Shown here: positions 12,107 through 60,421 of the stretch, one piece after another
Layout of the letters: every line of letters starts with the position of its first letter
Position numbering within the stretch: position 1 is the stretch's first letter
Assembly: GCA_000934665.2 (NCBI GenBank)
Contig: KZ538236.1
Span: 1 to 64,000, forward strand
Reading direction: 5' to 3'
Length of the DNA: 64,000 nt
Origin: Catajapyx aquilonaris
Taxonomy: Eukaryota
Position numbers and translations under genes: made by a program
The notes under the pieces: generated by a model
What the model was told of the DNA's origin: nothing
What the model saw: the letters and a program-made list of their open reading frames with translations, nothing else
Database searches by the model: none

Positions 12107-13966
12107 ATGGAAGGGATGGTGCAGCAGCAGCGGGCTTCTTCTTCCGGCGGAAGCAGCCCAGCTCTGTCTGTTGCTGCATACCATCACAACTGGGGTCCAT
12201 TCAGCTTCAGGGTAGGGACGATGGCGATGGCACTTCCTCTGGACTCCTGGGAGGTGGCGGCTCTTCAGGCCGGCTGCAACCTGCACGCGTCCAACTTCCG
12301 TCTGTGCGCCAGGAATGTCCGGGTCGCAATGGAGAGCTCGCAGCAGCAAGCAGCACCGGTGCCATCGTCATTCTCCGGATCGGCGTCGGCGTCGTCGGCG
12401 TCGTCCGGCGCTGCCACCGGAGCATGGACGCCCCTCCCCGTGCTGGGAGTGGCAGCGGCGCACCTGGCCCTGGCCTTCATGGCTCTCCTGCTCAACATCA
12501 TCGCCATAGTGTCCCTCTGGAGGACCACCAACGCAGGGATAGCCAAATCCACCTGTTGGATCCTCAGGTGAGCACAGCAGCGAAAGGGACACGCTCTGAT
12601 GGAACCGGTGGTGGCCTCACCTTCCGGAACAGGCGCTACCAACTTTGGCAAAAGTGGGGGCGGTCCAACAATACGAGGCTAGGGTTGCCGAGTAATCCAT
12701 TAAAAATGATAAGGTTAACCATCCTAGTGATTCACAGGTTCTGGGTAAAGGAGAACATCGCATGCATATGAAATCATCCTTCCTTTCAGTGAATAATTGC
12801 GTGGGCGAGTATCACAGTAGATAGGACAAATGTCGAGCTCAAATTGTGGTTGTTCGAGAGATATGCGCGATTACACATGTCATCCATTGTCCATTATTAG
12901 AGTCTGCGGGACGTATTTAGCTTAGGTTAGAGCTAGAGCCTCTCTATAATAGTAGAGGGGTATATAACGCAAGACTCGCTTTGCGAGGCAGGGGGGCTTC
13001 GCCCCCTCCCCCACCGTGGGGCTGCGCCCCACTTTTACTGCATGAGATATGTACCTCCTCGTCCTCAGGAGCCAGTCCGTGGCGCTGTCCCTCCAGTCCG
13101 TGGTGGCCATGTACGCCCAGGGCTACCTGACCCGATCGGTCCTGAGCTCGGACTTCCGCCTGGGGGCCGCCCTGGCCATGCAGTGCCTGATGGTCAACAG
13201 CCTGGCCTTCTGGCTGGCCACCACCCTGGCCCTCCACCTGCCCTCCATGGCCTTCGACCACGCGCTCAGGCTACTCAGGCCCAGGAGACACGCGTCTCTG
13301 AGCACCAGGCTGCTGGCTCCGTGGCTCCTGGCGCCCTGGGTCCTCGGCCTGGTGCTGGGGGCCGCTCCTCTGATGGGATGGCGCCAGTGCTGTCCTCCCG
13401 GCACCAGCGGCGCCTGCCTCATCTTCAGGCAGCACGACCACCACTTCCTGCAGCTGGTGGCCACCCTCTGCCTCGCCTCCGCCCTACTCGTGGCGCCCTG
13501 CATGGTCGCCTGCACCAAACTTGCGGCCAGGATGCGGGGGGACGCCCGGGACGCCTTCGCCCGAAAGAGCGACCAGGGCGGGATGGCCCCTGGGCTGGCC
13601 CCTAGCGTCCTGGCCCTGTGCGCCATCTACGCCCTCTGCTGGCTCCCTCTCCACCTGACCCTCCTGTTGGGCTGCCCCACCTGCCCCGCCCCTGAGCTGG
13701 CCTCGGGGCCCACCCCAGGGGCCATGTTCGCCCTGGCCCTCCTCTACGGCTCCCTGGCCCCCTCCCTGGTCTTCCTCAGGCTAGTCAGACGCCGACGCCA
13801 CCAGCGGAAGTGCCGCGTCTTCCTCCTCAGCGCAAAGCAGGTCACTCTCGCCCACTTCCAGTCAAATCAGGTCAAAAATAAATATTTTTTCTCTCCCTTA
13901 CAGGTGGCAGGCGACTTCGCTGTTCAAACGGCCAGCTTCATAGTTCCCGCCGCTCGAAGGTATTGA
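12107..13966 (+). CDS. Rhodopsin-like (class A) 7TM receptor, orphan, with degenerate activation motifs, ~431 aa
   Basis: Exons are 12107-12567 (AG|gtgagc), 13069-13840 and 13904-13966; the last intron is 63 nt, in frame and stop-free, so it may be retained. There are seven hydrophobic segments: TM1 LLLNII, TM3 C...MAFDHALRLLRP, TM4 PWVLG..APLMGW, ECL2 Cys, TM6 YALCWLP. The start could alternatively be ATG 12221. Confidence 0.8.
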
Positions 13967-15809: not shown

Positions 15810-18319
15810 ATGAGTGGTCATCTGTCCACCTTCGAGAGGGTGAGGGAGTCCTGCTTGACCTCAGGTCGCCTCTGGGAGGACCCCGAGTTTCCAGCAGAGC
15901 AGTCCTCAGTGTTCTACCACCAGACACCGCCATTCGCATTCAGCTGGAGGAGGCCGCCTGAGATAGACACCGCACCTCTCTTCTTCTCAGACGGAGCACC
16001 ATTCGACGTGGTGCCTGGAAAGCTAGGTGAGTACGGTAAGACATGCCATGGACATACCATATAAAACATTGGGACTGCAGGTGACAGGTGGCTGGTGTCC
16101 TGCTTGGGCAGCCTGCACTTGGCTCGTGGCCTGCTGTTCCGGGCGGCCCCTGCAGATCAGACCTTCAGCACTCCGGAGTACTGCGGTGCATTCCGGTTCA
16201 GGGTGTGGTGGTGCGGACGATGGGAAGAAGTTGTCGTCGACGACCGGCTTCCTACTTTATCCGGTCGCTTGGTGTTTGCTCACCACACACTGTCGACTCA
16301 GTTCTGGGCTCCGTTGCTGGAGAAAGCGTATGCCAAGCTGCATGGGTCGTACGAGGCGCTCAAGTACGGTAGTGCGCTTGACGGCCTCTCTGAGCTCACT
16401 GGAGGTGCCGCCGAAGCCATTGATGTCCGTGCGGATCCAACAGTGTTTGGACGGCTTCTGCCTGCACTCCTGGGTCGCACCTCGCTGTTGACATGTGTGG
16501 TGCGTCCGGATGAGGATGAGTCTGGGAATGTTGCAGCATCCGGAGCCAGGTTGGCCAGCGGTGTTCTTGTCGGGGTTGCGTACAGGCTGGAGGCACTGGA
16601 GAAGCTGGAGACTAGAACGGGCGACCATGTGACACTAGTGAGGTTGAGGTGCGCTTGTGGGCTGGACGGAGCGGCATACGGAGCGTGGTCTAATGGCTCG
16701 CTAGACTGGGAAACGCAAGGTACACAACATACAAGTACAGAGGGCAATACCAATCATCCTTTCATTTCCAGCCGCTCCCGGTGAACGTACACGGCTCATG
16801 CCTCCGCCTGGGTCCTTCTGGATGTCATACCAAAACTTTGTGCGGACCTTCTCCCATCTTGAGGTGTCCCACCTGGATGAGGAGACAGCGCACGGTGAGC
16901 CCTCACTCAGGAACCGCCGTCCGTGGCGCAGCTGCCTGTTCAGAGGCTGCTGGCGGAAGGGGGTGTCAGCTGGAGGATGCCGCCAGCATCTAGACTCCTT
17001 CCATCTCAACCCGCAAGTGCGGCTACAACTGCAAGGCAAGTTCACTCGTCACGCTTAATTTCGCCTCTAATGACTGTTCACATAGACTCAGGCGAGACGG
17101 AAGTGGTGGCGGCCCTACAGCAACATTGTGCGCAGGAACCCAAAGTGATAGGCTTCTCCATATTCCGACTGGAAGACGGTGCGTCCATGTGGGAAGCCCA
17201 GGGACGGAGCTTCCTCAGGAAAGCGAAGGCGGTGGCAACATCAGCATACGCAAACAGCAGGCAAGTCAGTGCAAGGTTGGTGCTGCCAAAAGGTGTCTTC
17301 TTGATGATTCCGACAACATACGAGGCAGGAAAAGAGGCCGGATTTACAATACGTGTCATGGCGGACTCCACGGCACATCTGAGGTCAGTTGATACAATCA
17401 GCTGCGAACTGGTGTCACCTTGAATATCCTGCAGGCTTCTGGACACAACGCCCAAGCTGCTGAGGCCGGTCATACTGAAAGCACCGCTCGAGGCCGAGTC
17501 CGGATTTGCGCAGTACGAAGCGGTGTTCCTGCAGCTTGCGGACGAGCAGCGGTCAGTCAGTGCGTTTGAGCTGCAGGAGCTTCTGGACGCCTGCCTGCCA
17601 AACGACTACATCAAGAGCTGTGCGACTCTCGAGGTCTGCCGACAGATCGTCATGGCACTGGGCGTATCCTTTTCATTCGGTGGTTGGATCCGAATGCAAT
17701 AATTACTTTTCCTAAACGGCATCAGTCAGAGGGGCGGCTTACATTCGGAGCGTTCAAGGATCTCCTCTGCAGCCTCAAGAACTGGCAAGCCGCATTCAAA
17801 AGCCAGTCCAAGGAGAAAACGGGTGTGTTACGGGCAGAACGGTTACGAGACGCCCTCCAGCAAGTTGGTAAGTCCAAAACATCTGCAACAATCGACTCAA
17901 CGTTACCGCCACATTTATCTACAGGTTTCCAGCTAAGCTCGGAAGTCCTTTCCCTGCTTCTACTGCGCCACATGAGAAAAGACGGGACCCTTCGCTTCGG
18001 GGACTTTGTTGCGGCAGTACTACACTTGGGGGCAGCGTTTGGTAAGGCAAAAAGACACATTTTAAGCTGACTGCAAAACGAGGGGGGAAAGGTTGACTCC
18101 CCTTTCTCCATAATTTTTATTTATCATTTTTTAAAAAATCCACAGGTGCATTTGACTCTGGTGTCAAAGAGGGAGACACCTCTGTGTTCACATTGTCCGA
18201 GGTAAATGTCCGTTTTTTTTATACACTAATAAAATTTTCTCCGTCCTCTTATTTTGAGCTTTTTAGTCACTTTTTTCACTTTGATGTCACAGTGGCTGCG
18301 GGCGGCTCTGACCTGCTGA
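15810..18319 (+). CDS. CalpC: Calpain-C (catalytically inactive classical calpain: CysPc, C2-like and penta-EF domains), ~662 aa
   Basis: Exons 15810-16026, 16081-16719, 16772-17035, 17086-17383, 17435-17663, 17726-17867, 17925-18041, 18146-18201 and 18293-18319 are all phase-consistent. Motifs include LWEDPEFPA, VVVDDRLP, FWAPLLEKAYAKLHGSYEAL, G.W..GVSAGGC and PTTYE. Catalytic triad positions read GDRW (C>R), GVAY (H>V) and RLRC (N>C). Confidence 0.92.
17036..17085 (+). other. Non-canonical GC-AG intron in CalpC
   Basis: Donor is CAAG|GCAAGT and acceptor is CATAG. The phase-1 join links two otherwise out-of-frame calpain domain III segments. Confidence 0.75.
17664..17725 (+). other. U12-type (minor spliceosome) GT-AG intron in CalpC
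   Basis: The 5' site is GTATCCTTT. A branch-site-like TTTTCCTAAAC (17707-17717) lies about 10 nt before the AG, with no polypyrimidine tract after it. The phase-0 join restores the EF-hand reading frame. Confidence 0.85.
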
Positions 18320-18784
18320 GCTCACATCGCATTTTAAAGGTCCTTCCCACGGGGCAGACATCGCTACCTCAACACTGCACGGCTCACGACGGCTCTTCAG
18401 TTTCCTGAAATGAAGACGTCAATGTCAAGTCGAGTGCAAGGAATGGAAAACACCAAATGAGCCTCAACAATCACCCGAGAAATTAGTTTGTACATTTCTA
18501 CATCAAGCACTTACAAATTTTTATAAATTCTAATGTTTAAAATATCTTAATGAGTTATTGCCTATCTCCAAGACATTCCCAAACTCTTACAGCTACTTTC
18601 ATGGAAACATTCAGGTGCTGGAACACTTCCTTTGCAAATGACGCAACTTGTACAGCCAAGCACAACTACTTGCGGCACTACAACAGCAGTGATAGTGTAA
18701 TGAACGGAATTGCGGCAAACCATCTCGTAACTTTTACGTTAAGACTATGGTCGAGTTGCGGGGGTTCAGTACATACGGGGAATG

Positions 18785-21700
18785 CTAGTAAATGGCTGCA
18801 CTCACAGGCTCTTCCCCTCCTGTGACACCTTCCAGTCTTGTAGTAGTAGCAGCAGTGAATTCCTCCAATTTCTCCTGCTCCTCCTCCTCTTCCCTCTCTC
18901 CGGCCTCTTCCGCTTCCTCCGCTCCCATCCCCGTAGGATTCCAGGAGGCAAAGTACCGGACGTCCCTGTCCGTGTCCCCCTGCAGCTCGTTCACGGCCTG
19001 CGTGAGGAGCTCGTGATGGGGGTTCTGCTCCGCCGAGAAGTACTCTGCAGGAGGAAGGATAATGTAGTCAATTCGCTTCATTCAAAGGTCTAAAAATGCA
19101 CGTACCTAATGGGAGAAGCTCCTGGGCAAGGACCCTGGCGACTGCAAGCCTGACGTTGGGCACCCTGTCCCACGTGAGGTCCAGAAGATGGGGAAGCACG
19201 TCTTGGGAGAACTGCGGGAGGGGAAGCGCCTTCTCCGCCACCAGCAGGGAGCACAGGCTGGTGAAGAGCTGCCGCCTGGCCCACCGTCCACTGTGGGCTA
19301 GTCGTTCGGCAAGGTCCGCCAGCAGTGCCCTCCCGCCACCCTGTGGAGGAGGCGGAGACACTGCCACGGCCCGTGTGACCAGGCGTAGTGCTGCTTGCCT
19401 GACTGCGGCCACCCTGTCTGCTAGTAACGCTAGTGCCAATGGAACCAGGTGCTTTTGGACCTCCGCTGGCGTGTACAGCTCAACAAGTGCCAGCAGCTGC
19501 TCGGCCAGCTCCATCCGGAAGCGCCAGTTACGTTCGTTGTCTGTCTTTAGGAAGTGCCCAAATCGGGGCAAGTACTCGCGACGCTGCTCTGGCCGCAACA
19601 GTCTGATGAAATCAGCCAGGTGGCGGAGGACGCCCACCCGAACTTCGTCTAAATCCTTCAAAAATTCGTCAAAAATTGGAACTAAATCGCGGGAAGCCAG
19701 CTCCTCCCCTAATATTAAGGCCAGTTCATGGATGCTAGCTGCCAGCGTGCGCCTGACTTTCCACTGCATGTCGGCAGCCAGCGCTCGGTAAGCACGGTGC
19801 AGCAAGGGCCAGTGGGGGCGTCCTAGGGTCATGGCAACTGCTGGGAGACTAAAGGCGCAGTGGCATGCTATCTCGTTGTCTACTGATTGCGCCTGACTCG
19901 GGTCGGTCATGGCCACAAAGTGGTCTATCAGGGGCTGCGGTACTACGTCTTGGCAGTGCAACAGTAAGGGTAGTGCAGGACGATGTACTGCCAGCACTGG
20001 AGGCTTCTCCACTGGCGGTACATCCAGACTGATGTCAGGAATTGGGTCGCGCCAGTACTGGAAGGCATTGAACTCAGCTCCACCTCTCGAGGGCACCAAG
20101 GGTCTGATCAACTCCTCCTCCAGCTCAGCAGTGTACGTGGCGGTCTTAACCATCTTCAGCTCCTCAGGCGCATCCTTCGTGTCCGCAAATGTGACTATAA
20201 ATGGTCCTAACGCATGGAACGCAGCTATCCGCACCCATCTCGACTCATCTTGCAACAGTCGTACAAAAGCTGGGGCTAGGGAGTTCCTGCGCCTTGCAGG
20301 TCGCACCACGCACGACATGGAAGTGAAAGCCTCGGCACACGCCTTGCGTACTTCCCACACATCATCCTCACACAGATCTAGGAACTGAGGTAACTGGAAT
20401 GAGACAAAAAAAATAATTATAAATGCATGAGTATGAGCGTGAAACTATCCCAAAAGAAGCAACTCACCAGTACTTCCTCTACAGCTTCGGCATTTACAAC
20501 TCCGCAGAGGTCACCCACGTTGGCCGCACAAACTTTCCGCACTGCCACGTGCTGGTCCGCACAAAGCGAAGCGAATCGCCGAAGGAACATCTGCTGGGTC
20601 AGGTGCTGTCCCACCAACGGCGCCAACTTGCTCAGCAGCTGAGGGGTTGGGAGTGAAGAAGGAATAAGTGGGGGTTGGAAGGAAGAAGAGGGGAAATTTG
20701 ACTTGAATCAAAACAAGTTTAACCGTATACTTTGCCAAACCAACAATGTTAATCACCACGGTAATATGCTGCTAACAGGTGACCCTACAACAATGCAAAT
20801 TGTCTAGCGATTTCGAATACTAGTGTTAAGGATAACATGCTACACTACAGATGATTATTATGAAAGGTTACAAAGTGGCATTCCAGATTTTCACGTATGA
20901 AACGCTTTCTCTAACAAAATGCTTGTTGCAATAAATTCTGGATTAACCAATCTGGTGGTGACTCCAGGCGTCCCAAAATTATTAGTAATTAAACGTTGCG
21001 TTTTTCACTGTACGAAGTCACCTGTCAGCAGCCCCCAACTGCATTGCCACTACTTAAAACGTGCAACATGCAAATTTCTGGAAGTTGCAATGGAAGACGC
21101 GTGTATGGACGTATCCGTGTCGCTCATCAAAGCTGGCTGTGATATGATGCCAATATGCACACATCAGAGCCACCTTGACGAGCAACACAGCTCACGTTTT
21201 TTTTTATTTTCACCAAGGACGACGGCACTCAGGAACGTTACATTGTGGGGGCAAAGTGTATGTGTGTCTGTGTATGTGGAGCCGGCACCGCTCATCAAAG
21301 CTGGCTGTGATATGCTGCCACGGCACATACGACAGCCACTTTGTGAGCAGCACTCGGCCCCCCTTCCCTCATGGAAAAACTCCTAATGTCATCCGAATGT
21401 TTAGGCGGGGGAGATGCAAGCCCCCGAGGCGCAACTCGTCAAAAATGGCTGTGATATGATCACACATGTCCACACACCGCAGCCACTTTGACGGGAGCAC
21501 CTCGGGACTTCACCTGGAAAATCAAGACACAATCGTTCCCCACAAAAACCACAGAGATGTCGAGAAGCATTTGGTCAGCCGGCCACTGAACTGATGCATG
21601 CTGATTATTAGTTCAAATTGAAGGACCATTCAGCGGGAGTCAGGTTATTAATGAACGACTCAGAATCACATAGCATGAGCTAAATTTGGGGAGTAGTTTC

Positions 21701-24700
21701 TCTTCTTCTTTTTTGACTGCCACCGACTTAAGGCGCACCCTGGGTTTTATGGGGAACCAACAAATATTTCTCGGTAAAACTAGGAAATTTTTAAAGCAGG
21801 CAGAAACTCACGGGACGAGTTCGCTTAAGACCGAGCTCATCAAGGTGGCTGTGATATGAGTATGAAGCAAACCACATCTCAGCCACTTTGACGCCTCAGT
21901 CCCAAGCAATGGCTCCAGTGGTCGTTCTTCCTTCAAACGCTGCGTGGCATGCACCGCTTTGCTCATCAAAGCTGGCTGTGATAGATATGGGCCACGCTAT
22001 GACAAACCAGATTTGATGCCAAAGCAGGCAAGATCAAACTCCTTCCGAGGCCTCCTCTTCTCTGCAGGGTCCTGCCAGTGGCTGAGTTTGGGCATCACGC
22101 CGCGTGAAAGACAAGGTAGTGAGATGTAAGAGTTAGCTAACATCTCACTACCCATGTCTTTCACGCCACATGCACCCTACATTTTTTTGGGGAAGTCACC
22201 CATCATGTACAGTACAAAACAACACCTAACGGAAGGGGCAAACAAGGTGCGAGCAAAAAGTACTATACTAACTGCAACAGCTTCCATCCTATGGTCGTCC
22301 TCGCTGCTTGGGGAAGTTACCCGAAGAACAGCCGGGCAGACGAGCACCTCCACTTCCTCTTCGCCGACCAGGCCCTGCTCTAGTAGCACCAGGAGCGCAG
22401 CTTGAGCCGTCTTACGAACCTGCAAAACATGCCTAGGTTAGTAATAGTCATTCCAACACTATTTAACAGCTAACGCTCGTCTGATTTCTCCCATTTTAAC
22501 TGGACCACGTGCTAAGGCCGCTCTCAAAAAAAGTGTGCACGACTTCCGCCTCTCGCTTTGATTTTATATGCACCGAGCCTTTGCACTTACTCTGGCCTTT
22601 TTGCCAGGGCATTGAAAAGTGCATCTTTCCCTTCAAGCAGTAATCAACAACTACTATTTTCCCACGCCCCCATTTTACCCCATCACTTTTCCTCTTGCCC
22701 CGGAAAAAAAAAGAAGCTGGCTGGCAACCAAATCATCAGGGTCGTTGAACACCTCCCACACACATGGATACCGCACCCCCAATTCGACCATGGCCTTTTA
22801 CCTGGTTGTTGTCGTCTGTGAGGAACTTGACGACTAATGGCAGGAGGTGTCTGGGTCCCACGTGCGCCAGACTGGTCCTGGCTCCTTCCTCCTGGCACAG
22901 CACCGCCACGTGGGGCACCTGCTCCATCAGCTCTGCTCGCACCAACGGCTCTGTACATCGCATGAAAGAGAAGCAAGAAAATAATAAAAAAGAGGGTCAC
23001 GGTCGGGCAACAGCAGGCAGCACAATGGGACATCCGGCTACTCCCACACATGCTGGAGGTCGAAGGTCAAATTGCACCCCCCCTCACTATACACCTGGCT
23101 CAATTTGTCTAACAAGTTCGCAGCCGACCTGGTCAAACTGCAGTGTAGCAAAATTTGGCAACACTGCCCGGCCCGATTGGACGTGATATGCCACTACGTT
23201 TCTTGGGGGTGGACCACGTGCGCTGCTGACGGAGGCAAAAATCGAAGGAACTGGCGCGAGGGAAGCGCATCTTCCGGTATGTCTGGCACCGACAAAATAA
23301 TAATAATAAAAAATGTAGGAGTCCGTTTAGCCCAAGAAGTTTGGAAGAACAAGAAGTGAGCACGTGCGAGGCAGGCAGGCCTTCTCTCTCTCCCCCCACC
23401 ACCACCACCATCTTTTTGACTTCCGGTGTCAACCCTTCGGAATGCGGGCCATCTGGCGCCGAGACGGCTTCCTTTCCCCCCTCCTAAACCCCCCAAAAAG
23501 CCCTCAGAAAGGGACCAAAAATACATCCAATCCTGGAAGTGCCACAGGGTGCCCTCCCTCCCTCCCGTCCATCTTTAAAGCTGTCCGCACCCTCCTCCCT
23601 TCATATACATGGATTGCACATGTGTGTACACACGTGTACTCACCGGAGTCGTGTGCGAGGGCGCCAACCACGCCCAGCACGGCGGCCACTTCCTCCGACT
23701 CCCCGGACACGGCCCGGAGCGTCTCCAGCACCGACCTGGCCACCATCTGCCTGGAAATACACAAAAAACACCAACCGTCAAACAAAACGAAAAGAGTACC
23801 GGTCATGCACACACACACAACACAACAGGGGGCAAAAAAACATGAAATGGGTCGGAATTTCAGTGGCATCATGTGCACACGTGGTCAAACAGGCCGCCAA
23901 AACACACGTATAGTCCAATTAGACAATGTCGCACTGGGCAATGATTCCTTATTGGTACCGAATTGCCATTGTTGACAGCAATCAAAAAGTGTACAGATTA
24001 TCCGAAAGGAAAGTTGCATTTGCATTACGGGTGACACTGGCCATAAGTCACATGGTCGGGGACAGTGTGTCAGTCACAAGTGGACACAATGCAATTGGGG
24101 GCAACAATTTTCAAGCGACTTCCTGGGATTACGTTATTATTGTCGATTTGCACCCTGTGATTTGCCAGAACAATTTTTCTGAGACACCCGGTACAACTTC
24201 CACAGGCTTTTTTTCTTTTTTTCTTTAAAAAAAACCCGCGGGGTTCGAACCTCCCAGCAAGGACGGACACGATCCTGAATGGGTCCATCACACACACACA
24301 CGTGAGAGCTCCGGAGCAGTGGGTGGTAGTAGTATCGGGTGGTTTTTTTATTTTAAAAAATCTGACCGTGACACATGGGACATTCCGCATCCCCCCTTCC
24401 GATTCATCATGATTCACTCTCTCTCAAGAAGACTCACACTTGACACACGCACCCATGACCATACTCCACTGAAATCCTCCCCCCCCCCCTCCTCCTCCTC
24501 CCAAATCTGGCAGCGTGTACTACGACGTGGGGCGGTGGCGTGGTGGTCGACGTCGTGGGCGCCCCACGATCCGGAGGTAGGCGGAGGAGGAGGAGGAAAA
24601 AGTGGGTAGGAGGGATAGGGAATGGTGGAGGTTTGTATTGATTGAGCGGCGGCCGGGATTCGCGCGCCACGGCGCTGCAGCATCCGATGCAGCTGCCAGC

Positions 24701-30700: not shown

Positions 30701-33700
30701 AATCCCCGGGTTTTCATCAGATCAGTGAATGGCCAGCACATAGCTGCTAAAGAGAGCCTCAAACAGAATGGTGCCAAATAACCGTCACACGCATGTAACC
30801 AGGCCTGGCACCGGATTGTTTACCCCAGCAAGCTACAGTGCCCCTGAAGTGTTGCTGGGATAAACAATCCTCATCCTGTCCCCCCCCCCCCTCTCTCTCT
30901 CCGTGAAACTTGGGTCGGCTCTCCACCCTGTTGCGGACAGGGATGCCAAATTTCTGAAGTAAGCACGCCTTCAACTACACACCGGCTATTTTCGAGAAGA
31001 GTGGGTGGGTAGACGGGGGGAAAAAAAGAGAGGAAACTGAGTCAAAAAAACACCAGCGTGAGCAAACAGTACAACCTGCGTGCGTGAGATTATCTCGAGG
31101 GTGGTGGCAACGACCCCCGACTTCCTCGCGGACGTCGTGGGAAGGAGAGAAAAAAAGAAGCGTCGCGACGGAACCTTCTTCTCCGGCAGATGGCGCTTGG
31201 CACGTGCTCCCATATCCACGTGGACACACACACACCTACACGCACTTGCAAAAACCTCACTTCCGGTGGCCACGCACTTGGGACACTCACGCACTCCGCG
31301 CCACACCGACGCATCTTTCCCCATTCCTTTCTTCCTTCTGCGGCGCTGCCTGTCAGTGCCACTGCTGCTGCCAGGCCCCTCTCAACACAACCCCCCCACT
31401 CCTAGTAAACCCCTCCTCCTCCTAGCCACCCCTCACCAACGCCCGCACACAACCCACCCCCAACTCTCTCTCCCAACATCTGTCACAGTGCCGGAAAACA
31501 ACCAGGCCTGACTAACCCATCGCCCGCAGACTCACGCCGGATGGACCCACGGACTGGCTCCAAGGAATATGATGGTGCTGGGAGGGAGGGAGGGAGGGAG
31601 GGGGGAGGATGCGCAAAACACACACACCCATCCCCACCCACCCAACAGAAGATCCAACGCACAACACGCATTTATCCACGCGCATCCACCCCCCCTCCGA
31701 TTCAATATTTTGCTTTCGTTGGGAATATACGTCACCGTTGTGGTATTGGTGAGGGCGGGGACGACGAATACGGTGAATTCCCGACCCCCAAAAACAGCAG
31801 CTATTCGGCCAGTAGCGGCGACAAACAATCGCTGTTATGCGATTGGCTGTGAGGGGCGCGCACTTTTCCATTTCGATGCATGCCATCGCATTGTATTCTC
31901 AAGAGGTTGATCCGGCCAGCACTCTTGCCATGAGTGTGCTCCACTGGATGCATAACACGCAGGGGGGGNNNNNNNNNNCAATATCTGAAGTGGCCGAGCT
32001 ATAGCATGATAATATCATATATGCCTAATCCGCTTATTCTCTCTGTCCGTTTGTCCGTGTTGACTCAAATCGCCTAAATAGTAGCTTCCACACTTTTTCA
32101 CTTTCCCCGTTCAACAATGAGGACAAGAGGGTGGGACCCACGCTCTGGTGGGCTTTGTCGCGAGGTGACTCATCACCAACGTGCATGTAGCACTACCGTC
32201 CCCCTGCGAGTGGCAGTAGTGTGCAGAGAGCCTATGCGCCAACTGGTAGTGGCCTATCGTACTACGTCCAAGTTGGGGGGAGCAGTGTTGCCAGAATTTG
32301 GCAACGATTCCGCTACTGGTTCGAGGAAGAAAACACAAATGCCTCGCGAATTCCAGGGATGATCGCAACAAAACAGGTTTTTGGCGCACCTGCAATACAC
32401 CAAAAACTATCCCCCCCCCTCGACATTTTCGCGTTATTGGGCATGAAACTTTCACCTGTTCCGCTCAGATATTCAGGGATATGCAATAACTGTCAAATTA
32501 CCGCCCGATTCTGAACCACGCCAATTAAAAATGCACCATGCCACCACCAACCCCCCCCCCTGCAAAACCGTTATTGGCAGAGTCAATATCCCAAAGTAAC
32601 AAAAACCAAGCAAATGAACAAATGCGGCCTGCTGTCAACGTGCAAAAAAAAAAAGGAGAGCAAACCATAAGGGATCTATGCAATAATAATAATAAAAAGG
32701 TGTAGTACAGTACACTTCCTGATAGTATAGTATAGTTACATAACACATAGGCCGTAATGCAGGTGGAGTGAGGGTGAGGGTGGGGGGTGTATGTTCTCAT
32801 GGCAACTGGGATCATAACCCCCCAAGGGGTGGGGAGAGAGTGAGCAAGCGCTGCGAAATACGTACACACACATTCATACGGGCACGAAAGGGACGATGTG
32901 AATGGAGCGTAGAGCGTAGCTCGGCCATGCAGTTCTTTTCGTCGATGACGATTCCCTGATAAGAGCGCGCCAAAAAAACATGGACCGGGGATAAGGGGGA
33001 GGAGGAGGAGGGGGATAAAAAAAATCTTACTACGCCTTTGGCCTTGCTTGTACTCACTAGTAGGTAAACATCACGCAGTAACGGCATTTCCCCCCCCCCC
33101 CCTCCTTCCCTTGTTGTCGTGGAATCTGCTGGCCTTCCACGCAACTTGTCTACACGGCATGCCTCTTGTCCCTAACATCGTCATTGACGGAAACTGTCAA
33201 CTTTTGGGAACGCCATTTAGCTACCAAAAAGACTGAAGGGCGGATCGGCTTCCACTCACAGACAGGAATCGAGCCAATAATATACCCCTGGAGAGGCCTT
33301 CAAAAAAAAAAAAAAAAAAAAGAACACGTCGGAGTCACGACACCAGAATAATCTCGGAGGAAAAAATGTTTTCGACCAGGTGTTTCCGGAAACGGCCTTG
33401 TGCGACTTCATTTTCCGTTACCTAATATCATTTGAGCACCTTTTGGTCCAACTAATTAGCGCCACAATTTTTTGGCCCATCGAGGAGAATAAATTTGTAC
33501 GAACAATCGGCGCCTGTTTAGTACACACGTAGCACCAGATAAAACGTGTGTACGCGTCACTCGTTAGCGACGTGCATAAAAATAGCTAAAAAGAAAATCG
33601 TCCGATTGTGATGAGAATGCCGCGCAGCAGGAGGGGGAACATTACCAGTATATTGTTCTGCAGGGCATGCCCGCGACTTCCTGGCTCCAAATGCCCAAGA

Positions 33701-45700: not shown

Positions 45701-48700
45701 AGTTGACTCTTCGCCTATAGGTAGTAGTTACCACAGTTTTAAATTTCCACGTACAACAATTAGAGGGCATATAGCGGTCAGAGAGGGTGGGACCCACTTC
45801 AATGAAGGTGAGACACCTCGATGGGCTTCGTCATCACCAACGTGCATGTAGTACTAATTTCTCCCTGAGAGTGGCAGTAGTGTGCAGAGGGAGAGCCTAT
45901 GCGCCAACTGGTAGTGGCCTATTGTATCACGTCCGGATGTCCGGAGGGTGGGCCATGCAGTGTTGCCAAATTGGGTCCGCTACTAGTATATGGAGGAACC
46001 GGAGAGGACGCTGTTTCACGTTGTTGCTAACCAAAAAAGCATCAATGTATATGACCCAGAATATGTTACGAGCTGCACCGCATTAAAAATATTTAAAAAA
46101 TCCTGAGAAACATTTTTCCTCCAGCTATATAGAAACCTGCGTGCATTGGTTACCAACTCAACTGTAGCTGCCTGGAATCCCGCCCCGATTTCAATGGCAT
46201 TTGTTGGCCCAATACAATCCACTGTTCATCACACAATCATTCCTGGCTACACCGGGATGCTCTGAATTATTGATCACAATCAGCACACTAAGCTCATTAT
46301 GTGTGCAGGCCCCCCCCTTCGATAAAAATATTATATATATTACCCGCACAACAATGGCCGGTCCCTGGAAACACAACAGGGTGTTGCACACGCCAGCCAG
46401 GGGTGTCCAAAAAGGTTTAATGTTCACGGGTGTTGTTGTTGTTTTAAAAAAATCGCATTTTGTGTATACAGATTAAAACGGGGAAGTGTTCGCTCCAGCA
46501 ACCAGTTTTAAACGACAAGCAACAATTGCTTCGAATTTCAAGTAGTTAGGGGTAAACAACTGTAAAATTTTTGGGATAGCCATACACCCTGTACAAATAT
46601 TAGCTGTGTGCACACGGAGTAGAATAGACCGCAAAAGCTACTGGGGGGAAAACTGGTACAAATTTTGCGAAGAAAAATAATTCTGCGCAACTCTTCGCCA
46701 GAACTTATCGCTTTTTTCGCTCATTTGAAGTCGACTGGAAAAGGGAATTCGCAATCCGGCCACTTCGTTTGATATCATCGTTGCGAACTCGTTGAATTAC
46801 AGTCGCGGCATCAATTTTTTGCGGTTCTCCTTCTCTCGTGGACCTCCACCTTAAAGCTAGGCAATATTTAAAAAGGTCTCCCTGCACAATCTTTTTCCCT
46901 GACATTTGCGATTTTTTAAAATAAAAAATACCTATAGTTACATCTATGCTCACATACACGCATTGATTGGCAATAACTGTGTATTAATTTTCATAATGTT
47001 AAACTCATTTCCAGGCGAGTATCAGGGATTATACTGCCTACAAAATGAGCCCTATCTATTGATTTCATCCCCCGTGCACATACATTTTCATATGAAAATG
47101 GGCAGGGACATGAGCAGTTGGGCGAGTAGAACATAATGCATGAGTGAAATTAATAAATGATTATAATGTGTGGGTACATGTACGTGCAGAAAGCCTCCCC
47201 CTACCCCCCACAATTAGCGCAAAATATTTTTTTTTTTTTGGCCGCACAAAACCTATCGAACCTGCAGCATTTTCAGTGCGCAGGTGTGTACCTGCAATTG
47301 CAATGTGACAGTATAATTGCATCGGTCAAAATGGTAGTTTCACCTTTTGTAATTGGGGGACGAGAGGGCATCGCTTGGATTAATTACCGTGTGCTCTCTG
47401 CACAATCCTACACGTTTTAATAAAATGAAGCCCACCCCCGGGCCATTACTGACTCTCCACATTGTGTGCCCTTAATTCGAGGTTATCGTCGCATCAGTGG
47501 TACACACACACAAGTCAGCAGTGTACACATAGCCTATATAGCTGCACATTCCAGTATATAGTCACCGCTCGCCAAGCCTGAGAAGCACAAACACATAACA
47601 TAAAAGACATGTTGTTGAAAGTGATTCACTGCCCAGCAGTCATTGTTAACAGTCAAGAAATTTCGGCTCGACAGTAGCATATCGGCCTGATGGACTTTGT
47701 CCGCGCGGTGACCCATCACCAACGTGCAGGTGTGTAATGGATTTTCCCTGACGAAACAACACCGGAAAAAACGTGTTTCCTTCAGAGCCTTTTTACACAC
47801 AATCGCGTTCTTACTTACTCAACTGATTGAAAACAGATCCAATCCACTCTTTTTCCTAGATCCTAACCCAATCATAAAATTGGGAAAGACAGAGACAGAA
47901 AATGGCTCTTGCTGGGGAGGGGAATAATCCAGAAAATTTGCGGTCAAACTGGCGAACCGCACTATTATACTCATAGTGGAAGAAAAAGAAAAAGAAAAAA
48001 ATGCCTGACTATAGATTACACACAAAATACAATTTGACTCTTGAGAGTTTGTGTGCGTGTTACAATGCAACTTTACTCACTTGTGCATCACGAAACTACT
48101 AATTAAATCGCATCTGGCGCTTACAACAGCACAGTTTGAAAACCTAACCTGCCAAAGCATCTAAAAAAGTGAATGCAAGTAGCAGTAGTATTTGAGGAAG
48201 AATGTTTGAATATGACTAAAGACCAAGTCACTCTAGAGGACTTTAGAAACTATCACAGGCAAAGCTCGGCATTTGCATTTTCATGGGTCTGCACATTCAC
48301 CTCACATAATCAGCTGTGCTCGAGCAAAAATTATGGCACACAATGTTTGATCGTATAACCCCCCCCNNNNNNNNNNNNNAAATTGGCAGTGAATTGCAGT
48401 TGTTCGCAAGCAAATCACAAGAATAACTTGACCTCTGACGTGCTGCTGGCAGTCACTCAGAAAATTAATGCGAACCAACCTGCCAAAATATTGTGGAAGC
48501 CAAGAGGACAAGAGAAATCATTAATAATCCTACCAATTGATATTCTTTCAAAGTCACAGGTATTTCATTCTACTTCTTAGGCCATCTACTTCCATCGTTT
48601 GGTATTTAACAATACGCCGGTCATGCCTCTTCAGGATGGTCAAGTGCGTAACGTCCAGTACCATTCCTACAAAAATTATCAACGGAGAGGGCACTCAAAT

Positions 48701-54925: not shown

Positions 54926-60421
<5,496 letters not shown>

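Follow-up and report, generated by a model that had tools for sequence, protein, structure and literature searches.

The first 64,000 nucleotides of contig KZ538236.1 from Catajapyx aquilonaris (GenBank assembly GCA_000934665.2), hereafter called the window, hold a dense group of short hairpins within one intron of the gene for the PP4 regulatory subunit PPP4R1, which raises two questions: what these hairpins are, and whether it is the host gene that has them transcribed. Our analysis indicates that the locus is almost certainly the arthropod orthologue of the conserved invertebrate mir-71/mir-2/mir-13 polycistronic cluster, and that transcription of its hairpins is probably driven by PPP4R1. 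The minus-strand span 21118-22169 comprises one mir-71 hairpin together with five of the mir-2/mir-13 type, all within 1052 nt; their coordinates, numbered in the order in which they follow one another along the minus strand, are collected in Table 1 together with those of the host exons.

An initial annotation, prepared from the letters of the DNA, had placed six minus-strand hairpins of the mir-71 and mir-2 type in about 1.05 kb at this location, five of them sharing a repeat ending in TGGCTGTGATA. Each part of this description is borne out. The complement of the repeat, the 11-mer TATCACAGCCA, is present in five exact copies in the window (at 21134, 21302, 21446, 21846 and 21973), each of them on the minus strand; with at most one mismatch allowed, 7 matches are found against 0.97 expected, a count that was reached by 0 of 100 shuffles. 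Compared with Rfam at the gathering threshold (score 50 for mir-71, RF00832, and 45.5 for mir-2, RF00047), the window as a whole yields six matches: mir-71 on the minus strand, the mirror of mir-71 on the plus strand, and four minus-strand mir-2 hairpins (54.4, 53.8, 53.2 and 49.9 bits); families other than mir-71 and mir-2 were absent at this threshold throughout the window. The remaining member, hairpin 2, was added by a permissive Rfam scan of the 2.5 kb region 20400-22900. Folding, which the initial annotation had proposed as a check, gave a single hairpin in all six cases (z-scores in Table 1 relate to 200 shuffles), and sliding 90-nt folds over 20600-22320 on both strands yielded no extra hairpins, every segment at or below -30 kcal/mol overlapping one of the six. 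The mir-2 seeds in the window lie 180-1019 nt past the start of mir-71.

Table 1. Coordinates of the microRNA hairpins, their predicted arms and the surrounding PPP4R1 exons in the window.
Feature	Position	Strand	Predicted 3p arm	Fold (kcal/mol)	z	Basis
mir-71 precursor, first in cluster (hairpin 1)	22098..22169	-		-59.5	-10.7	Rfam RF00832, 74.1 bits vs gathering 50
Predicted miR-71-5p	22141..22163	-				Ends predicted; dominant arm by analogy with other species
Predicted miR-71-3p (star arm)	22103..22124	-				Inferred
mir-2, first-position paralogue, weakest (hairpin 2)	21957..22023	-	21983..21961	-33.9	-2.8	
mir-13a-like (hairpin 3)	21831..21898	-	21856..21834	-50.7	-7.2	Rfam mir-2, 54.4 bits
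mir-13b (hairpin 4)	21430..21498	-	21456..21434	-52.0	-7.7	Rfam mir-2, 53.2 bits
mir-2, fourth mir-2-family copy (hairpin 5)	21286..21350	-	21312..21290	-56.4	-6.9	Rfam mir-2, 49.9 bits
mir-2, fifth and last copy (hairpin 6)	21118..21185	-	21144..21122	-53.9	-9.1	Rfam mir-2, 53.8 bits
Host intron, 1634 nt	20639..22272	-				Spliced contig, GT..AG on minus strand (CT..AC on plus)
PPP4R1 exon upstream of microRNA intron	22273..22417	-				Spliced contig piece
PPP4R1 exon downstream of microRNA intron	20468..20638	-				Spliced contig piece
Large PPP4R1 exon (HEAT repeats)	19106..20393	-				Pfam HEAT E 1.1e-17; PPP2R1A-like_HEAT

Mobile elements can yield tandem repeats with inverted arms, and one might ask whether the array is derived from a transposon, or consists of hairpins that arose by chance; nothing beyond this general property of mobile elements speaks for such an origin. 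It is refuted by the shuffles, by the specificity of the Rfam family matches, by the related loci described below and by mature arms identical to cloned moth and water flea microRNAs (PMC2500172, PMC6828783). The exact motif has no further copy in the window outside the cluster, and we regard the probability of a chance or transposon origin as negligible.

The mir-71 hairpin is the clearest member of the group, the match to RF00832 covering model positions 1-73, i.e. the full length of the model. Minus-strand bases 22163..22140 are identical, 24 out of 24, to the cloned bmo-miR-71 of Bombyx (PMC2500172), and also to Daphnia magna miR-71-5p (PMC6828783), while the predicted miR-71-3p agrees with the cloned bmo-miR-71* in 21 of 22 bases (PMC2500172). 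Judging from the fold and from the Bombyx star sequence, the last two bases of miR-71-3p would project beyond the 5' start of the 5p arm. The mirror of mir-71 on the plus strand (22099-22170) scores 55.9 bits against the gathering score of 50; this match results from the near-perfect stem, in which the arms mirror each other, and does not constitute evidence of antisense microRNAs. Were the plus strand nevertheless the functional one, with the microRNAs yielded by antisense transcription, this score and the weak plus-strand matches to mir-2 (26-32 bits) could be cited in its favor. However, each plus-strand score is lower than that of its minus-strand partner and four of the five fall under the gathering threshold, the minus-strand fold is the stronger one for all six hairpins, the plus-strand arms do not carry the conserved UAUCACAG seed at their 5' end, and the host gene as well as all 34 related hosts (see below) follow the minus-strand reading. 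We consider antisense production of these microRNAs highly improbable.

In all five mir-2-family hairpins the 3p arm begins with UAUCACAGCC (seed AUCACAG, complementary to the K-box), and the motif is always located on the 3' arm. Along the minus strand the 3p arms form the following series: a mir-2 ending in ..GAGCA, a one-base-shorter CCAC.TTGATGAGCT, a CCAT.TTTGACGAGTT, and two mir-2 ending in ..GAGCG. The second of these, hairpin 3, shows a one-base gap in its 3' arm relative to the mir-2 consensus in the cmscan alignment, and Marco et al. (2012, PMC3384581) regard a one-nucleotide deletion in the 3' arm with respect to mir-2 as defining the mir-13 subfamily. At position 12 of this mir-13a-like arm the window has C and five related loci have T; a literature search for the 23-mer in its DNA spelling (the RNA spelling was not searched) did not find it. 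Hairpin 4 has no such gap, and thus its label "mir-13b" rests on identity with the Bombyx product and not on the deletion: its 3p arm is identical in 24 of 24 bases to the cloned bmo-miR-13 (PMC2500172). Alignment of the predicted arms with known mature products, likewise suggested at the outset, has thus succeeded for the 5p arm of mir-71 (Bombyx and Daphnia) and for the 3p arm of hairpin 4 (Bombyx).

The exons on both sides of the hairpins match PPP4R1 (best E 1.7e-141), with no more than 62% identity to any database protein, and a protein search with the exon 19106-20393 identified 1691 relatives. Taken with the RSPRY1 matches reported further below, this points to an arthropod, probably a hexapod or near relative, of a poorly sampled lineage. 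In a public run of the same organism (X2) there is a contig of 3144 nt, at least 99% alike and with a depth of 38.9, that joins 19044 to 19106, 20393 to 20468, 20638 to 22273 and 22417 to 22800, and each of these four skips is bounded by GT..AG on the minus strand. On account of the four clean intron removals the contig must be derived from RNA, the sole alternative being a processed retrocopy. The reading frame remains open across the joined exons, and the microRNA intron follows residue 99 of a partial host protein of 585 residues. Since the spliced contig skips precisely bases 20639-22272, the intron bounds predicted in the initial annotation are exact, and the identification of the host as PPP4R1, with the hairpins on its own strand, is upheld by the protein match together with this contig. 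Run X2 also contains unspliced contigs (20646-20894, 20974-21191 and 21278-21524), which overlie hairpins 4-6 at a depth of 2-4, compared to 38.9 for the mRNA, and whose cover stops short of 21525-22272. These low-depth contigs are compatible with pre-mRNA; being strandless, they could also represent DNA carry-over.

For comparison we scanned a collection of metagenome contigs with the 22-base mir-71 arm, which revealed 57 loci, each of which was oriented with mir-71 forward. The mir-2 seed TATCACAGCC occurs on the mir-71 strand 137 times downstream of mir-71 and 0 times upstream, and never on the opposite strand, which adds direct evidence that mir-71 leads the cluster in all mir-2-bearing loci of this set. 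The 3p strings sort the 57 loci into 30 architectures with 0-5 mir-2 sites. The order observed in the window (mir-2, one-base-shorter mir-13a-like, mir-13b, mir-2, mir-2) recurs in five of them (L025, L038, L057, L008 and L042), so that the succession of hairpins behind mir-71 originally read from the window is matched by the same order of paralogues in other clusters; a four-copy form of it is present in L019, L027 and L030. The mir-13a-like type is found in second position also in L025, L038, L019 and L057, and the mir-13a/mir-13b pair occupies places 2 and 3 only in loci with an insect-like PPP4R1.

The same loci were searched with tblastn (E at most 1e-4), using the host protein of the window and eight named PPP4R1 proteins as queries. 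PPP4R1 exons were detected in 34 of the 57 loci, on the mir-71 strand in all 34 and on the opposite strand in none; they lie upstream of the cluster in 26 loci, downstream in 19, and on both sides in 11. Wherever the two flanks could be seen, they enclose one and the same intron position. In L007, L031, L054 and L055 host residue 100 is both the end of the upstream exon and the start of the downstream one; the latter begins at this residue in 11 loci altogether, including L048, L049 and L014, whose PPP4R1 is lophotrochozoan-like. The taxonomic origin of a locus was taken from its best named PPP4R1 match and is therefore a guess based on similarity: Daphnia for L055, L043 and L006 (80-85%), a clam for L004 and L056 (67-86%), oysters, scallops and other lophotrochozoans for L002, L034, L017 and L048, and a cockroach or termite for L008, L038, L057 and L027. 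The claim that the cluster conservatively occupies an intron of a PP4-subunit gene finds support in these same-strand exons, and it also fits a sentence in the description of the honey bee cluster (PMC2394756). That sentence is the closest statement we found in the literature, where our searches turned up no paper naming PPP4R1 or PP4R1 as the host of mir-71/mir-2. A paper retrieved as a possible joint treatment of PPP4R1 and microRNAs (PMC5408686) concerns a retrocopy of mouse Ppp4r1 and is irrelevant here.

Two minor types of loci deserve mention. In L013, L015, L036, L037, L040, L045 and L051, mir-71 is followed about 180-200 nt further on by a mir-2, and after another 100 nt or so by a hairpin with the shifted motif TATCACAGTCC. 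No PPP4R1 exon was detected in any of these seven loci, not even in L037, which extends 8 kb upstream and 7 kb downstream; the lineage concerned may have moved the cluster out of its host gene, or may have a very long intron. L029 (303 nt upstream and 3784 nt downstream of mir-71) has an exact mir-71 arm, with neither a TATCACAG motif in the 3.8 kb downstream nor a match to PPP4R1, and could come from a lineage that possesses mir-71 without a linked mir-2.

Several observations weigh against the view that the window contains six working microRNA genes expressed from PPP4R1. Hairpin 2, with 35.5 bits for Rfam mir-2 (E 1.7e-4 for the 2.5 kb searched), falls short of the gathering score of 45.5, and its fold of -33.9 kcal/mol (z -2.8) was equalled by 1 of 200 shuffles. 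The X2 contigs are strandless and come from a library whose kind is not recorded, and hence they do not demonstrate transcription from the host promoter. Canonical microRNAs are recognized by reads of about 22 nt that derive from each of the two arms, start uniformly at the 5' end and leave 2-nt 3' overhangs, and for this species the mature products, the arm ratios and the 2-nt overhangs are predictions. K-box counts say nothing on the targets: the window contains 12 K-boxes compared to 8.3 expected, i.e. no excess, and five of the 12 are the complement of the microRNA genes themselves, while the minus strand of the host 3'UTR (18000-19044) contains none. Finally, no PPP4R1 exon was found by tblastn in 23 of the 57 related loci, most of which have short flanks and are for that reason not counted against the linkage, and of the 8 whose flanks extend for 3 kb or more on either side, three (L021, L037 and L040) are PPP4R1-negative; either the linkage to the host is not universal, or the introns in these three are long.

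The last of these points bears on the source of transcription. The polycistron could be real and yet possess its own promoter, inside the intron or upstream of it, with PPP4R1 serving merely as its address. Intronic microRNAs can indeed be regulated independently of the host (PMC2956262), the three PPP4R1-negative loci suggest that some lineages may have a cluster that functions away from the host, and Drosophila retains mir-2 and mir-13 although the host phosphatase has been reported as lost there (PMC2394756). On the other hand, selection for host-driven transcription predicts what is observed in the PPP4R1-positive loci, namely the same strand in every case and an intron position common to the insect-like, Daphnia-like and bivalve-like ones. 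Moreover, mir-71 starts only about 100 nt past the splice donor, so that an intronic promoter would have little space. An independent promoter therefore appears unlikely to us, and transcription driven by the host remains the explanation we favor.

The weakness of hairpin 2 might alternatively mean that some copies, above all this one, are decaying and unprocessed, and that the functional cluster numbers fewer than six; its score and fold, given above, are what such a reading would build on. Against it, the 23 bases of the 3p arm of hairpin 2 recur unchanged in hairpins 5 and 6. When hairpin 2 was set against 15 first-position hairpins of other loci, 20 consensus pairs emerged; five of these show compensatory changes, four of the five being in the part of the basal stem that lies beyond the mature arms. 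Across this alignment the 5p arm is conserved and unlike that of an ordinary mir-2, and this accounts for the low Rfam score of hairpin 2; its membership in the mir-2 family is suggested by orthology with the first-position copies of other clusters. The first copy is weak elsewhere too. Among loci with at least three mir-2 sites, the median fold of unique first-position hairpins is -31.8 (n=25) versus -36.9 for later copies (n=72), with a one-sided Mann-Whitney p of 0.005, a value that overstates independence because the sequences are related. The first mir-2 copy is the weakest hairpin in the window, L025, L057, L008 and L019, but not in L038.

A further line of evidence comes from a relative. 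Run X1, an RNA library labelled "invertebrate metagenome" (0.06 share of sampled words), yielded three contigs that are 90-99% alike to the window and match only islands around the hairpins, with flanks on both sides that are unlike it. One corresponds to 21109-21200 and 21271-21350 (hairpins 6 and 5), the 70-nt spacer between them being replaced by 78 different letters; another to 21951-22023 (hairpin 2), with 1 difference in 73 bases; and the third to 22091-22172 (mir-71), with 5 differences. Islands of this kind are what one expects microRNA precursors to leave in an intron that diverges around them, the weak hairpin 2 included. Weak folding, which recurs in the first copies of other clusters, is a conserved trait of the first-position paralogue and not a sign of decay, and we regard a cluster reduced by decaying copies as quite improbable. 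The first mir-2 copy may instead be a conserved sub-optimal substrate of Drosha.

If the hairpins are expressed with their host, as we favor, RNA polymerase II would transcribe all six of them within the PPP4R1 pre-mRNA, and Drosha/Pasha would crop them from the intron during splicing of the exons. Dicer-1 would then remove the loops, and Argonaute would take up miR-71-5p and the five miR-2/13 3p arms, which share the seed AUCACAG. The loaded arms could in turn repress mRNAs with K-boxes (CUGUGAU) or miR-71 sites in their 3'UTRs. We infer the co-transcription with the host, the exact ends of the mature products, the choice of arm and the targets.

Neither the kind of cluster nor its arrangement is new, and for the honey bee the same holds for the host-intron context. 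Insects possess mir-71 together with five hairpins of the mir-2/mir-13 type (Marco et al. 2010, PMC2956262), and the location of mir-2 downstream of mir-71 on the same strand has been identified as the ancestral arrangement (Marco et al. 2012, PMC3384581). The window resembles the clusters of Tribolium, Apis and Bombyx in having mir-71 followed by five same-strand mir-2-family hairpins in about 1 kb (PMC2956262, PMC3384581), the Bombyx cluster in particular in its mir-13b and mir-71 arms, which equal bmo-miR-13 and bmo-miR-71 (PMC2500172), and insect mir-13 in having one copy with a one-base-shorter 3' arm (PMC3384581). With a single mir-71 along with five members of the mir-2/mir-13 type it agrees with Marco et al., as the "insect-type" label given to it initially implied, and the accompanying judgment that this is a conserved rather than a new system is sound, given that publications already covered the cluster, the order it has in insects and its place within a bee intron. 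A neural role has been proposed for the mir-2 family (PMC3384581).

In the honey bee, a 2007 report placed the cluster in the third intron of a gene for a Ser/Thr phosphatase (PMC2394756), and, as here, it lies in one intron of a phosphatase-related host with orthologs in vertebrates and older metazoan lineages. That paper does not use the name PP4R1 for the bee gene, GB15727. The composition also differs slightly: three mir-2, one mir-13a and mir-71 in the bee (PMC2394756), compared to three mir-2, a mir-13a-like and a mir-13b, besides mir-71, in the window. Chelicerate, branchiopod and lophotrochozoan clusters similarly place mir-71 first, with mir-2 downstream on the same strand (PMC4987109; Coucheron et al. 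2019, PMC6828783). They differ in the number of mir-2 copies, for which Leite et al. (2016, PMC4987109) give two in most mites and three to six in spiders, and which amounts to 1-5 in the clusters of the metagenome loci. Another old microRNA locus kept in one intron of a host gene across phyla is mir-1/mir-133 in MIB1 (PMC2500172); it is antisense to its host intron, in contrast to the cluster described here, which is sense in the window and in all 34 related loci with a PPP4R1 exon.

For this genome the analysis yields the coordinates and strand of six microRNA genes and confirms their host intron; such genes are invisible to annotation based on open reading frames, and the cluster may well be unannotated in this species. 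Two aspects appear mildly new, namely the breadth of the linkage to PPP4R1, which includes ecdysozoan-like as well as lophotrochozoan-like loci, and the finding that the first mir-2 copy is typically the weakest hairpin. The term "cluster assistance" comes from work on microRNA clusters of vertebrates. It is conceivable, though on balance doubtful, that both of two further statements hold for the present cluster: that its linkage to PPP4R1, with the same intron position and sense strand, is protostome-wide and more than half a billion years old, and that the first mir-2 is a sub-optimal Drosha substrate which perhaps needs its mir-71 neighbor. A protostome-wide linkage, if true, would imply a selected coupling between transcription of the PP4 regulatory subunit and the output of miR-71 and miR-2. 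Either of the two mildly new aspects could serve as a starting point for a small comparative study of the coupling between microRNAs and host genes, or of assisted processing.

Other features of the window were noted in passing. A gene for a calpain-family cysteine protease occupies 16065-18070 on the plus strand (Pfam Peptidase_C2, E 7.6e-50, in the exon 16065-16784); it is convergent with PPP4R1, whose coding region ends near 18786, the two being about 0.7 kb apart. Farther away, at 13046-13966 on the plus strand, we found an exon of a rhodopsin-family 7TM receptor with 61% GC (Pfam 7tm_1, E 3.6e-11). Short runs of N mark assembly gaps at 31969-31978 and 48367-48379. The region 55296-57836 on the minus strand encodes an ortholog of RSPRY1 (RING finger and SPRY domain-containing protein 1), whose best match is 76% identical and whose named matches, from a mayfly, a wasp, a stick insect and a tick, are 65-68% identical. 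Insects provide the best named matches of both PPP4R1 and RSPRY1, followed closely by chelicerates and a centipede.

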